64,000 bases of DNA from a virus. How positions within the stretch are numbered: the first letter of the stretch is position 1; each line of letters starts with the position of its first letter. The notes under the pieces are model-generated. The model did no database searches. It worked only from the letters and a program-made list of their open reading frames with translations, and had not been told where the DNA came from. Shown here in pieces: positions 21,534 through 24,683 of the stretch. A program made the translations under genes and the position numbers. The stretch lies in IMG/VR virus record IMGVR_UViG_3300047335_000043, one strand, 5' to 3'.

Positions 21534-24500
21534 TCAGTCCTTCTTGGGGCCGGGGAGTTTTTGCAGGGTCTTGATGAGCTGCGCACGCGTGTCCTTGACG
21601 AACCGGTCGAGCACACGGTGGCCGGTGTCGAGATCGCCGTTGCCGACGCCGCGCACCTGTTCGGGACTCAAGACATATTCCCCGCCGGCCGCCACGATCG
21701 GCACCCCGGAGGCGGCGCCGCCGTCGGCTTTGGGTGGTCGCCCATCCTCTGGTATACTCGGGGCGTTGGAGGTAGGTATGGCTGACCACGTAACCACTGA
21801 ACGAGACGGGTCCGATCCCGAAGTGCTGGGCAAGGACGGCTTCTGGGCCGCCAAGCGCGACGGAGTCTGGGGTAAGTTCTCATCGCCGATCCAGGCGCCA
21901 TGGGAAAGCACTCGGGTCCGCGTCGAAGATCCCGCTCTCGCGACCGCCTTGTCCACCGAAGCGCGCAACGCACTCTCCGGTTCCTGACCGAAGTCTTTGT
22001 GCCACGCGGCGGCGTTGGCAGTATTGCTCGTTTCCAGATCCTTATAGTACTCGGCGAGCTGCGCTTCGCTGAGCTTGTCCTTGTCAGCACCGCGCCATTT
22101 CTCGTACAGCAGATGCCCTTCGCGATCACTGTAATGCGCCATGTGGTGACCCACTGCGTAGTGCTCGACGAGCTGGCCGTTCGGCATCTTGAGATCAAGC
22201 GGCAACATGCGCCAGCCGTAGTCGTTCGGCTTTAAGAACTTCTCGGCATCGATCTTGGCGATATCGACGCCGTGCTTCTTGAGCGCATCGACGAGTAGTG
22301 GCAACTGACTGCTGTGCGAGATGTGGGTCTTGAACCGCAGCGTATCGGCCAGGTGTTCGACGCCGAACCAGGGCTTCTTCTTCAAGACCTCAGGTCGCGT
22401 CACCTTGCCTAAGATCGACTCATCCGTCTTGATGTTCTGTGGCCCCAGCTCAGGCGCATGCGCGCCATGGACTTCCCGGTTGATCGCCGCGACGAGTGCA
22501 TGCAGCTTCGGCAAATTCTCGTGCGTGAGCGCGTGTATCTGATTGAGCTTCTCGTGGGTGCTCGCATTCGGGTCGATGGGGTTCGTCGGCGTGCCGACGG
22601 GCGCTGGCGGGCGCGCGGTCTGCTCGTAGTGATGAGCGTTGTGCGCCTGAGCGGTGAAGCTCTGCTCCGGGAACGCCGAGGTGGACATCGGGTCGTCACT
22701 GAATACTGAGCCGCCGCCGGCATAGAACTTGATCGGTCGTGGCTCGACGAACGGCTTGCCGCGCGCCGCTTCCTGTTTGGCGGGCGCGTCGATCTCGTAT
22801 TCACCATTGTTGTGCTGCGCGTGACCGATGTCGTGCTCATCAACATGATGCGTGAACGCGGTCTCGTGCTGCAGACCACTCGTTGAGGTCGTGGGCGTCG
22901 TCATCAGGATCGCGCCGGCCTGCTTGCCGTTCTTCGTCACATAGCGGTGCTTCGGCAGGAAGTTGTTGTCGAGAAATCGCGAGTCGGTCGCGATCATGCG
23001 CGGACTGCCATCGTCGTTCTGTCCCACCTGCACCAGGCGCGGGTGCAGGATGTGCTGCTTCTGGTAGTCGTAGCGCCGACCGTTCAGGGTCGTGTGGCCG
23101 TAGTGCGCCATCTCGGGAGTCGTCGGCTTGCCGCGCTCGTCGAAGTGCCCCTCGGGGCCTTCCTCTTTCTCGGCGTCGCTCAAGCGATCGCGTCCCGCCG
23201 ACCAGTACTTCGCATACTTGATCGAGGCCTGCATGCGCTTGTCGAGATCCGAGTAGCGCGGCACGTCGGTCACGAGATAAGAGTTCTTCGGTGGTGTGAG
23301 CGCGCCGTGTTCGTTCTTAAAGTCGCCGTGGTTGTCAGCGGCCGTGATCGTCGAGCGAATGCGCTGGGCGTCGCGGCCGATATTGTCGCGCACCTCGGTG
23401 CCGCGCTTGACTTTCGGGCCCACATTCGAGTGCGTGATGTACCAGCCGTTTTCTGGGTCGTGCAGTTCGTTGGTCTTGCCGTACGAGTTGCCGATGATGT
23501 TCGGCAATCCATTGGCGCGGCGCTGCTCGTTCAAGTGCCGCACCACGTCACGGCTCGTGGTGTCGGACTCATCGACCATGTTCGGCCGGAACAACGTCAC
23601 GAGGTTCTTCTTGTCGGCCGCTTGCGCGGCACGGCGCAGCGACCCCGTGTGCGCCAAGATCCAGTCGCGCGTCATCTTAGGATCGTGCTTCGCCTGCTCG
23701 TGCGCGGCGCGGCGCACCGCCACGGCCGAGTACTGCGACTCGGTGTTCGGCGCAAAGCACGTGCCGCGTTTGGTATCGACGATGCCGTTCTTGTCCACGC
23801 CGCCTGAGCAGCCGGCGGTCTGGCCTGGGCAGGTGTTGATCACGTGCAGGCGTTCGTTCGCTCCGGTGCCTGAGCTGTAGACCGAATGGCCGGCGGTGCC
23901 CTTGGAGCCGTACGCCACGAAGCCACGACCTTGGGCGTCGCGCTCGTGGCGCACCGTGTCGAGCTTCTCGCTCTCATCGAGCGTGTTCGCATCCTTGGCG
24001 ATGTGCTTGGCAGCGCGCAGCCGATTGAGCGCGGCGTCCTCGTCGGCGAGCTGCTGAGGCAGGGGCTTCTGGAAATGCTCCTGGAGCGTCGCGCGATGGA
24101 TCTCGCCGACCTCGCGGATATTGAGCGGGTCACGGTTCTCGCCGCCGTACACCTTGGCGCGTGCCTCGTTGATCGCTTTCATGCCGGGCGATTGCTTCGA
24201 CGGCAACCACATATGCTTCGGCACCACGATGCCTTTGACGCCGCCGGGGCCGGTCGCCTTGATCAGCAAACGCTTCGGGTTGTCGCGCACTTCGCGAATG
24301 TCTGCGTCGTCGTCGGCCACTTTGCCGCCGTCGGCCATGCCGTACGGGATCGCACCCTGGCGGTAGGGCGCACTGCCCTCCCCGTACGGACCACCCGTGT
24401 GGTTATAGGGCTGTTGTCCCTGCCCGCGAGGCATGCCGCCGAACACACGCCGCGCATGCTTGAAGCCGGCGATCGTGTTGCCCTCGCCGAACGCCGAGAT

Positions 24501-24683
24501 GATGTCGGCCGGGATCACATAGCTGCCGCTCTCGACCGTGATTGGCAAGTGATCGGTGCGGCCGGCCACGCTTGAATGAATCGGTCCCACGTGGAACTTG
24601 TGAACGTGCGGTTTCTTGATGTGCGGCTTGATCGGGCCGCCCCCTTCGCGGGCGATGCGCAGCGCGTAGTCCAGGTCGCTCAC
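21534..24683 (-). CDS. Virion-module protein carrying GP88-like and RelA/SpoT-like domains
   Basis: GTGA-coupled start 24683, 1049 aa; N-terminal GRTDHLP...SGSYVIPAD and C-terminal VPIVAAGGEY...LPGPKKD segments flank two large domains. Confidence 0.8.
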   Translation of the reverse strand: MSDLDYALRIAREGGGPIKPHIKKPHVHKFHVGPIHSSVAGRTDHLPITVESGSYVIPADIISAFGEGNTIAGFKHARRVFGGMPRGQGQQPYNHTGGPYGEGSAPYRQGAIPYGMADGGKVADDDADIREVRDNPKRLLIKATGPGGVKGIVVPKHMWLPSKQSPGMKAINEARAKVYGGENRDPLNIREVGEIHRATLQEHFQKPLPQQLADEDAALNRLRAAKHIAKDANTLDESEKLDTVRHERDAQGRGFVAYGSKGTAGHSVYSSGTGANERLHVINTCPGQTAGCSGGVDKNGIVDTKRGTCFAPNTESQYSAVAVRRAAHEQAKHDPKMTRDWILAHTGSLRRAAQAADKKNLVTLFRPNMVDESDTTSRDVVRHLNEQRRANGLPNIIGNSYGKTNELHDPENGWYITHSNVGPKVKRGTEVRDNIGRDAQRIRSTITAADNHGDFKNEHGALTPPKNSYLVTDVPRYSDLDKRMQASIKYAKYWSAGRDRLSDAEKEEGPEGHFDERGKPTTPEMAHYGHTTLNGRRYDYQKQHILHPRLVQVGQNDDGSPRMIATDSRFLDNNFLPKHRYVTKNGKQAGAILMTTPTTSTSGLQHETAFTHHVDEHDIGHAQHNNGEYEIDAPAKQEAARGKPFVEPRPIKFYAGGGSVFSDDPMSTSAFPEQSFTAQAHNAHHYEQTARPPAPVGTPTNPIDPNASTHEKLNQIHALTHENLPKLHALVAAINREVHGAHAPELGPQNIKTDESILGKVTRPEVLKKKPWFGVEHLADTLRFKTHISHSSQLPLLVDALKKHGVDIAKIDAEKFLKPNDYGWRMLPLDLKMPNGQLVEHYAVGHHMAHYSDREGHLLYEKWRGADKDKLSEAQLAEYYKDLETSNTANAAAWHKDFGQEPESALRASVDKAVARAGSSTRTRVLSHGAWIGDENLPQTPSRLAAQKPSLPSTSGSDPSRSVVTWSAIPTSNAPSIPEDGRPPKADGGAASGVPIVAAGGEYVLSPEQVRGVGNGDLDTGHRVLDRFVKDTRAQLIKTLQKLPGPKKD

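Follow-up and report, generated by a model that had tools for sequence, protein, structure and literature searches.

The gene at positions 21534..24683 (minus strand) of IMG/VR virus record IMGVR_UViG_3300047335_000043 encodes a 1049-amino-acid (aa) protein, here termed P0002, that consists of a split scaffold with two cargo modules. Positions refer to the whole 64,000-nucleotide stretch of DNA that was analyzed (the window), which comes from a metagenomic contig of 69.3 kb and represents a podovirus-like temperate phage or prophage. We propose, with a probability of roughly 0.6, that P0002 is a "polyvalent" effector protein whose carrier had not been annotated before, and that the short motif Ala-x-Gly-Gly (AxGG, also written A.GG) would serve as a recognition element for loading into the capsid or exit from it, while also marking the joints at which cassettes are exchanged.

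The carrier is a scaffold of about 150 residues, composed of two repeat-related blocks with a flexible Gly/Pro loop between them, and its gene heads the internal-virion/ejection gene block. In our proposal, this scaffold would take the protein into the set of internal or ejected proteins of the particle. Cargo is added at two permissive sites, either the loop, as in P0002, or the N-terminus. Both cargo enzymes of P0002 would act in the newly infected cell, where the second is expected to make nucleotides of the (p)ppGpp/(p)ppApp type or to pyrophosphorylate a nucleotide-bearing target.

A Split Scaffold Holds Two Inserted Modules

The carrier open reading frame (ORF) is open from position 25130. 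The likely start is the GTG codon at 24683, which shares the sequence GTGA with the stop codon of the preceding gene and yields a protein of 1049 aa. Independent assemblies from other samples (P0123, P0516, and P0517) show the same architecture, and thus the carrier is not an assembly chimera. Its parts, all on the minus strand, are as follows; pLDDT is the predicted local distance difference test score.

21534..24683 (minus): whole carrier gene P0002, 1049 aa, a split scaffold with two cargo modules
24636..24683 (minus): N-terminal helix, aa 1-16, with REGGG at its end; modeled as helical over aa 3-13
24438..24593 (minus): scaffold N-block, aa 31-82, placed by a profile from small homologs
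24324..24437 (minus): scaffold loop, aa 83-120, Gly/Pro-rich, ending in PYGMADGG, the insertion point; pLDDT 31-43
22734..24311 (minus): cargo 1 core, aa 125-650, GP88-type, with invariant C285, C292, and C309; pLDDT 80-98
22710..22727 (minus): FYAGGG motif, aa 653-658; pLDDT <50
22629..22673 (minus): conserved FPEQ..AQ.H helix, aa 671-685, after the AxGG motif; helix 676-683 in the model
21930..22601 (minus): cargo 2, aa 695-918, with a RelA/SpoT-homolog (small-alarmone-synthetase-like) fold according to AlphaFold2 and Foldseek
21732..21929 (minus): disordered Ser/Pro-rich linker, aa 919-984; pLDDT 44-68 (domain model) or 23-30 (full-length model)
21717..21731 (minus): KADGG motif, aa 985-989, at the 3' end of the second cassette; absent from the relative P0124
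21537..21707 (minus): scaffold C-block, aa 993-1049, placed by profile; pLDDT 84-88

An earlier note on this DNA had described short N- and C-terminal blocks around two unrelated domains, and both the block profile and comparisons of the inserts bear out this description. The N-block (GPIHSSVAGRTDHLP...SGSYVIPADII...GEGNT.AGF) has 33 invariant columns among 31 sequences, and the C-block (GVPIVAAGGEYV...LPGPKKD), which itself holds the sequence VAAGGEY, has 20. The two blocks are internal repeats of each other. The consensus of the N-terminal helix, AL..AR...GG, is kept in scaffolds that carry no cargo, and in P0002 the helix supplies a further GG motif (REGGG, aa 12-16). Inserts 1 and 2 share no relationship with each other.

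The full-length AlphaFold2 model of P0002 has a mean pLDDT of 68.8. The N-block is modeled with moderate confidence (40-82), the C-block is modeled over aa 997-1043, and a low-confidence linker spanning aa 913-996 holds the KADGG motif. Cargo 2 is poor in this model, where it lacks aligned relatives, and it was therefore modeled separately using 75 homologous segments. Prediction of a complex between the N-half and the C-half gave a score of 0.28 (mark 0.32), which speaks neither for nor against their association. No model for the scaffold is present in Pfam, PHROGs, or NCBIfam, apart from a weak match of phrog_11341 to one cargo-free scaffold (E 6.6e-4). Neither the carrier nor either of its cargo modules had a hit in PHROGs, and NCBIfam likewise returned nothing.

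Cargo Is Exchanged on the Scaffold and between Carriers

When scaffold clusters are defined at 90% identity, the N-block matches 3,136 clusters shorter than 575 aa, mostly of 165-230 aa, as well as 128 clusters of long relatives (576-1836 aa). The statement in the earlier note that the two terminal blocks form one small protein in related phages therefore holds. One example is a 193-aa protein of MW202675, which consists of the N-block (57% identity) and the C-block (64% identity) with nothing between them. MW202675 and MW202545 were the only two matches from a tblastn search against cultured and metagenomic phage records. A match to the N-terminus of an 848-aa protein of Acidovorax phage AP1 (E 2e-3), a tape-measure phage, was too weak and was not used.

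Mapping of the blocks in 240 proteins showed that cargo lies N-terminal to an intact scaffold in most long members and that loop cargo occurs in a minority that includes P0002, P0124 to P0127, and NUDIX forms of 300-350 aa; some members have cargo at both places. The Pfam domains found as cargo in relatives are GP88, NUDIX, ART-PolyVal, GNAT, Zeta_toxin, CHAP, Phage_lysozyme, InPase, LPD23, ADPrib_exo_Tox, and DUF7178. The closest relative, P0124, is 88% identical over the N-block and 91% identical over the C-block, and is the same protein minus aa ~685-992, which comprise the RelA/SpoT cassette and its trailing KADGG. Homologs thus vary in length and cargo rather than all being full length with the same inserts, and the scaffold is a polymorphic carrier with exchangeable cassettes. 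The proposal of a polymorphic carrier is upheld by the 128 long relatives, their many enzyme domains, and the lack of the second cassette in P0124, but the cargo is mostly N-terminal and not between the blocks as the note had envisaged.

Cargo 1 also occurs away from the scaffold. One phage contig of 52 kb encodes a scaffold of 217 aa that lacks cargo, and insert 1 resides there on a 1527-aa ART-PolyVal protein encoded directly after the portal gene. Within the lineage, cargo thus passes from one type of carrier to another. A protein of 890 aa that adjoins the portal gene of MW202545 has insert 1 alone (62% identity), and the match begins at an MA.GG motif and extends beyond the FYA.GG motif. 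The same record encodes a 639-aa ejection-block protein (L006, 5546-7465) whose C-terminal ~140 residues are a divergent scaffold copy with 29% identity, and both carrier types therefore coexist in one genome.

Several further observations were made on these proteins. Many carriers and some cargo-free scaffolds begin with a conserved leader of ~40 residues, MPL.KGKS..TIS.NI.EM..AGHPQ.QAIAAAL..AR, with AxGG at about residue 40-43. A mini-module of ~47 residues, running from GLYANIHAKQ right after one AxGG to ...SARTAK followed by another, recurs in P0122, P0146, P0160, P0165, P0173, P0204, and others, and is sometimes the first unit behind the N-terminal leader. The guanine-plus-cytosine fraction of the second-cassette DNA (21900-22600) is 0.57-0.60 compared to 0.60-0.68 in the rest of the gene, a difference that is too small to call a recent transfer.

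A Directional AxGG Motif Flanks the Cargo Domains

The earlier note had placed a GG motif at each junction, and its coordinates for all three are exact (MADGG is aa 116-120, nucleotides 24324-24338). All three lie within the 17% of residues that AlphaFold2 modeled at low confidence. The middle one is not a plain junction, as A655, G657, and G658 are at least 97% conserved among 42 carriers, on a par with the core of insert 1. Because this motif is conserved like the core and is followed by the FPEQ helix, it is not a simple seam. The helix belongs to cargo 1 even though it lies beyond the AxGG, and the homology of P0124 stops at this helix.

P0002 contains four A.GG sites compared to 0.84 expected from shuffled sequences (P ~0.01), whereas GG alone is not enriched (12 versus 8.6). 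The same holds on a larger scale for the cargo parts of the family, where A.GG occurs 273 times versus 87 ± 8.5 in shuffles, [RKYFML]A.GG 211 times versus 23, and [RKYFML]A.GG.[VI] 98 times versus 1.9, an excess of about 50-fold. The reversed control, GG.A, is not enriched (99 versus 86), and thus the motif is directional. The extended form reads R(-4)-x-x-[RKY]-A-x-G-G-x-[VI]. A.GG sites bracket every Pfam domain in nine relatives, and no domain contains one; P0131, for example, has the order site, GNAT, site, NUDIX, site. The sites are often in tandem in carriers.

The motif is also present where there is no cargo. Within the 20 aa or fewer of loop that precede the C-block, A.GG is found in 190 of 236 members (81%) and GG in 41 more (98% in total). 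This near-universal occurrence indicates that the motif is native to the scaffold loop. It is further over-represented in the proteins listed here, most of all in the third.

16678..20988 (minus): ejection/internal-virion-protein-D-like protein, 1436 aa; phrog_6121 and phrog_4287 "DNA ejection protein"; Pfam Peptidase_S74
14483-16681 (minus): 732-aa protein
46706..47638 (minus): 310-aa basic Pro/Gly-rich protein that immediately follows the portal gene, the usual MuF position, and is composed mostly of [KR]-x-G-G-[KR]-V repeats

The ejection-type proteins with a Peptidase_S74 domain in the window and in three relatives each have three to five motifs compared to about one expected; those of the window protein are YADGG, YDDGG, and YDTGG. 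The repeats of the 310-aa protein are FKKGGKV, RAKGGGIV, LKKGGRV, RKAGGKV, and RKRGGRTYP. This protein has no Pfam, PHROG, or NCBIfam match and no homology to the portal-adjacent carriers, and it has only the motif in common with the carrier; it may be the cargo-free counterpart of the portal-adjacent carriers of relatives. The motif was not found in the nozzle, TerL, or fiber-like proteins. As a control, giant polyvalent proteins with homologs of cargo 2 show no enrichment, which indicates that the motif is specific to this lineage and not to the polyvalent class. Neither the scaffold nor the junction motif appears in the literature that was searched, and searches on the processing of polyvalent proteins likewise gave nothing relevant.

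One explanation for these sites is that they are cut by a phage or host protease, either during head maturation or after ejection, such that the enzymes are freed and the scaffold halves are left behind. The small residues of A-x-G-G lie in exposed, disordered linkers, and the sites flank every domain, often in tandem. Small-residue sites of this kind are typical of papain-like and double-glycine peptidases, among them adenovirus protease and the enzymes of ubiquitin-like processing, and GG is a common P2-P1 pair for proteases, as in GG-specific viral maturation proteases such as that of adenovirus. On this view, the GG sites of the 310-aa portal-adjacent protein would divide it into a series of short basic peptides. 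Moreover, Iyer et al. (PMC5512222) argue that polyvalent proteins need processing, by a zincin domain; this domain is missing here, and another route would be needed.

Several findings make cleavage somewhat unlikely in our estimation. Pfam analysis of 28 ORFs of the window, P0002 among them, revealed no peptidase except the self-cleaving S74 domain, a result that leaves room for a protease of the host or of a novel type. Residues on either side of the GG are conserved as well (R at -4 and V/I at +2). Cutting would also split the cargo-free scaffold, given that 98% of members have GG in the loop, and would sever the conserved FPEQ helix from cargo 1. Finally, stand-alone cargo-1 proteins retain the motif after leaders of just 5-30 residues.

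A second explanation does without a dedicated reader. The motif might be an inherited flexible hinge, conserved mainly as a recombination joint for cassettes in the manner of pre-toxin motifs. The P0002/P0124 pair differs by a single block that ends in KADGG, and the 5' joint of P0124 is a tandem MARGG-YADGG, as if scaffold and cassette had each contributed one copy. In addition, one cargo module occurs in many carriers with the motif at both of its ends. However, a motif of four to five residues provides too little DNA homology for recombination, and the enrichment extends to the S74 ejection-type proteins and the portal-adjacent repeat protein, which are not cassette carriers. The conservation of A655, G657, and G658 equals that of catalytic-core positions, and the directional extended consensus argues for recognition. 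We therefore regard a mere hinge as unlikely.

The recognition reading can be extended, although we advance this version only tentatively. The motif might be a dedicated signal of the lineage for both head loading and release into the host, read by a maturation protease that cuts after GG or by a receptor on the capsid, portal, or core. A modular set of injected enzymes would then have two interchangeable docks, the split scaffold and the portal-adjacent carriers.

Cargo 1 Is a GP88-Type Module with Three Invariant Cysteines

Cargo 1 (~560 aa) has at least 622 homologs, with 62-69% identity over 97% of its length, in many carrier architectures. The Pfam model GP88 (PF17338) matches with 28.6 bits compared to a gathering threshold of 24.4, but covers only aa 277-379 (profile positions 32-114 of 230). 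Among 42 sequences, 222 positions are at least 97% conserved, including Cys285, Cys292, and Cys309. These three invariant residues possibly form a metal or Fe-S site.

All long matches (173-226 residues) of the full-length model in VIA-align are radical S-adenosylmethionine (SAM) enzymes, with Z values of 4.7-5.5. They include a methyltransferase, SuiB, QueE, spore photoproduct lyase, and the activase of pyruvate formate-lyase. A Foldseek search of the PDB with this model returned no match below E 0.05. The matches of cargo 1 in BFVD are GP88-domain proteins and, weakly, a Gp37/Gp68-like protein, and the Gp37/Gp68-like family (DUF5131) is counted in the radical-SAM superfamily (PMC9477430). 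A kinship of cargo 1 with radical-SAM enzymes is a lead and not an assignment. An Atlas search with cargo 1 yielded nothing usable.

Cargo 2 Is Predicted to Adopt a RelA/SpoT-Type Fold

The separate AlphaFold2 model of cargo 2 has pLDDT values of 92-98 over aa 695-914, with the last helix reaching aa 918 and disorder at aa 920-985. Modeling of individual segments had been suggested in the earlier note, and in combination with Foldseek it gave a RelA/SpoT-type fold for insert 2. The top 50 Foldseek matches in the PDB are all small alarmone synthetases (SAS), RelP, RelQ, Rel, Tas1 (a type VI effector that produces (p)ppApp), or CapRel (a tRNA pyrophosphokinase), at 11-21% identity. The best is 8vx3_A, with an E value of 2.2e-6 and a template modeling score (target) of 0.62. 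A profile of cargo 2 searched against the PDB matched RelP (6fgk_A, E 2.2e-4), and an Atlas search returned a cluster in which 23% of members have RelA_SpoT (score 0.87), a lead that the fold later confirmed.

Residues K752, K760, R763, D780, D830, E840, H857, and R864 are invariant among the 75 homologs of cargo 2. D780 aligns with the Asp of RelP, and E840 is the probable catalytic Glu, judging from its motif position. As modeled, cargo 2 is a RelA/SpoT-type nucleotide pyrophosphokinase fold in which the catalytic Asp and Glu appear intact. It has 380 homolog clusters, in proteins that range from 206 to 6433 aa. There is no immunity gene beside the RelA/SpoT cargo, where the flanking genes are a small gene and a GNAT gene that also occur next to cargo-free scaffolds. 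This lack of an accompanying immunity gene fits the pattern of polyvalent proteins better than that of polymorphic toxins.

The Carrier Gene Heads the Ejection Block of a Temperate Phage

The phage that encodes the carrier is podovirus-like with an SU10-type adaptor, and temperate. The genes that define the neighborhood of the carrier and the main landmarks of the window are listed here.

732-2003 (minus): tyrosine integrase
21049..21531 (minus): GNAT-like acetyltransferase gene, 160 aa, directly downstream of the carrier; phrog_1249 acetyltransferase, E 2.6e-4
24680..25030 (minus): small conserved gene, ~116 aa, between nozzle and carrier; counterparts in L001 (113 aa) and L003 (126 aa)
25030..27156 (minus): tail nozzle-type virion protein, 708 aa; phrog_3287, E 9.9e-51
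42115-43029 (minus): capsid protein
47709-50231 (minus): portal
50451-52076 (minus): TerL

The window, MW202675, and two metagenomic relatives share the gene order adaptor, nozzle, small gene, carrier, GNAT, and S74 ejection-type protein. In MW202675, these genes are annotated as "phage stabilization protein" (the homolog of the nozzle-type protein), a small gene, the 193-aa scaffold, an acetyltransferase, and "internal virion protein D"; in relatives, an SU10_adaptor gene precedes the nozzle gene. A third relative keeps the outer order, with three unnamed genes between nozzle and carrier and the GNAT domain fused into the carrier. The scaffold gene lies between the nozzle and internal-virion-protein genes in every relative examined, which agrees with the placement between tail nozzle and ejection proteins given in the earlier note. 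A megablast search of 24 kb against cultured phages gave zero matches.

Peptidase_S74 is a self-cleaving intramolecular chaperone domain. In the 1436-aa ejection-type protein it is located at aa 295-343, far from the C-terminus, and is directly followed by YAGG...YADGG. The domain is also present in the counterparts of 1336-1976 aa from three relatives. The internal virion protein A (IVP-A) of T7 matches an acetyltransferase (PMC4819975), and the GNAT-like gene, which is next to the scaffold gene in MW202675 as well, occupies the position of T7 IVP-A.

Four observations suggest that the protein is packaged and delivered: the synteny, the IVP-A-like acetyltransferase neighbor, the cell-wall hydrolases among the cargo, and the presence of polyvalent-class domains. 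Lysozyme and CHAP cargo is expected of ejected proteins and thus supports a location in the virion. Alternatively, the scaffold could be a late cytoplasmic or assembly factor whose fused enzymes act in the producing cell, where a RelA/SpoT cargo without an immunity gene would be tolerable given that the cell is already doomed. We consider this very unlikely, as the gene keeps its position inside the nozzle/internal-virion-protein block, the lysozyme and CHAP cargo makes sense at entry, and signature domains of the injected class (ART-PolyVal, LPD23, and InPase) are present.

Some points weigh against our proposal of a delivered polyvalent protein with AxGG as its recognition motif. The evidence that would place the scaffold family in the virion consists of synteny and cargo types, and the binding partner that the proposal assigns to the motif is hypothetical. 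The motif counts come from related homologs and are not independent events. The scaffold has no PDB match by Foldseek (full-length model, nothing below E 0.05), and a clear homolog of it was found in no cultured phage. With respect to the cargo, the likeness of cargo 1 to radical-SAM enzymes is weak (Z <6), and its cysteines follow the pattern C-x6-C-x16-C rather than the canonical CX3CX2C. Cargo 2 falls below every Pfam threshold and does not match RelA_SpoT (PF04607) even at an E value of 1. Its enzymatic activity is suggested by the modeled fold, from which the product is not predictable.

Other features of the window were also noted. An ORF for an HNH endonuclease (43019-43549, minus strand; Pfam HNH_3, E 8e-13), possibly a homing endonuclease, abuts the major capsid gene. 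In the tail-fiber region, a protein with glycosyltransferase family 2 and TPR domains (30575-31633, minus strand; phrog_13126 beta-1,4-glycosyltransferase, E 1.8e-95) resembles a moron or a modifier of the host surface. A protein of 1463 aa (33590-37981, minus strand) that has two CHB_HEX_C_1/Fn3_assoc repeats and no PHROG match is probably a large fiber or decoration protein; its counterpart in L003 has 780 aa. At the left end of the window, the tyrosine integrase (732-2003, minus strand) is accompanied by tRNA-His (5755-5829, plus strand) and a transposase-like helix-turn-helix ORF (9636-10340, minus strand), which together suggest a temperate lifestyle and possibly an insertion element.

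Relationship to Known Systems

The earlier note had offered the locus as a candidate new system, and this claim was overstated because the polyvalent class has already been described (Iyer et al. 2017, PMC5512222). Polyvalent proteins carry RelA/SpoT, ART, GNAT, and lysozyme domains as cargo, and delivery with the DNA and zincin-mediated processing have been proposed for them. Like these proteins, P0002 and its relatives unite several disparate enzyme domains in a single protein whose gene lies with the late virion genes, with a cargo repertoire of RelA/SpoT, ART-PolyVal, GNAT, lysozyme, InPase, and LPD domains and predicted codelivery with the DNA. Of the domains that mark the class, the RelA/SpoT-type fold is present in P0002 itself, and ART-PolyVal, LPD23, and InPase are found on the same scaffold in relatives. 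In contrast, the scaffold is outside all Pfam, PHROG, and NCBIfam models, cargo can be inserted inside it, and the lineage-specific AxGG junction motif is not mentioned in PMC5512222. A zincin-like metallopeptidase is common but not obligatory in the class, and no peptidase was found in P0002 or in the Pfam annotation of its 128 long relatives. Thus, the class is known, and what is new is the carrier scaffold, the location of cargo inside the carrier, and the lineage-specific junction motif.

A comparison with MuF polymorphic toxins on a different scaffold, also drawn in the earlier note, is fair. MuF toxins are encoded by temperate phages after the portal gene (Jamet et al. 2017, PMC5576092; for Apk domains, see PMC12226406). 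Both systems join a conserved head-associated module to variable enzymes, including RelA-like and ADP-ribosyltransferase domains, and head loading with codelivery of the DNA has been proposed. Unlike MuF genes, the carrier gene is ~23 kb from the portal gene in the nozzle/ejection block, its cargo is internal or N-terminal instead of C-terminal, with several domains per protein, and there is no adjacent immunity gene. No Pfam match to the MuF domain (PF04233/PF06152) was obtained in P0002 at E values up to 0.01. In sum, the interpretation given in the note stands with respect to the modular carrier, the synteny, and the MuF analogy, but a new system and cutting at the GG sites are not supported.

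The carrier also resembles the T7 internal virion proteins and the P22 ejection proteins in that it comes right after the tail tube/nozzle genes, with acetyltransferase-like and large IVP-D-like neighbors. The T7 gp16 transglycosylase is an example of an enzyme domain that is carried into the cell on a structural protein. However, no sequence or fold match to gp13-16 of T7 or gp7/16/20 of P22 was found, and the scaffold is small and its cargo exchangeable. Cargo 2 has the fold of SAS, toxSAS, and Tas1, along with their conserved acidic (Asp and Glu), His, and basic residues, but it is divergent and embedded in a protein of a phage structural module. Finally, the pre-toxin junction motifs VENN and PT-TG (Zhang et al. 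2012, PMC3482391) are, like AxGG, short conserved motifs at the boundaries of exchangeable cassettes. The AxGG consensus is different, is repeated, occurs at both ends of cassettes, and is also present in nonpolymorphic internal proteins.

Biological Implications

To our knowledge, few delivery scaffolds for injected phage proteins are known, namely MuF, P1 Dar, the N4 virion RNA polymerase, and the T7 core. Phage proteins that are injected act before phage genes are expressed, which makes them prime candidates for counterdefense and host takeover. The findings reported herein add a widespread carrier, with more than 3,000 clusters at 90% identity, that is unnamed in current family libraries. 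They also bring to light two large uncharacterized enzyme families, the GP88-type module with three cysteines and a divergent RelA/SpoT clade of 380 clusters. The AxGG motif offers a mutable handle on how podoviruses choose what to package and on whether polyvalent proteins are processed.

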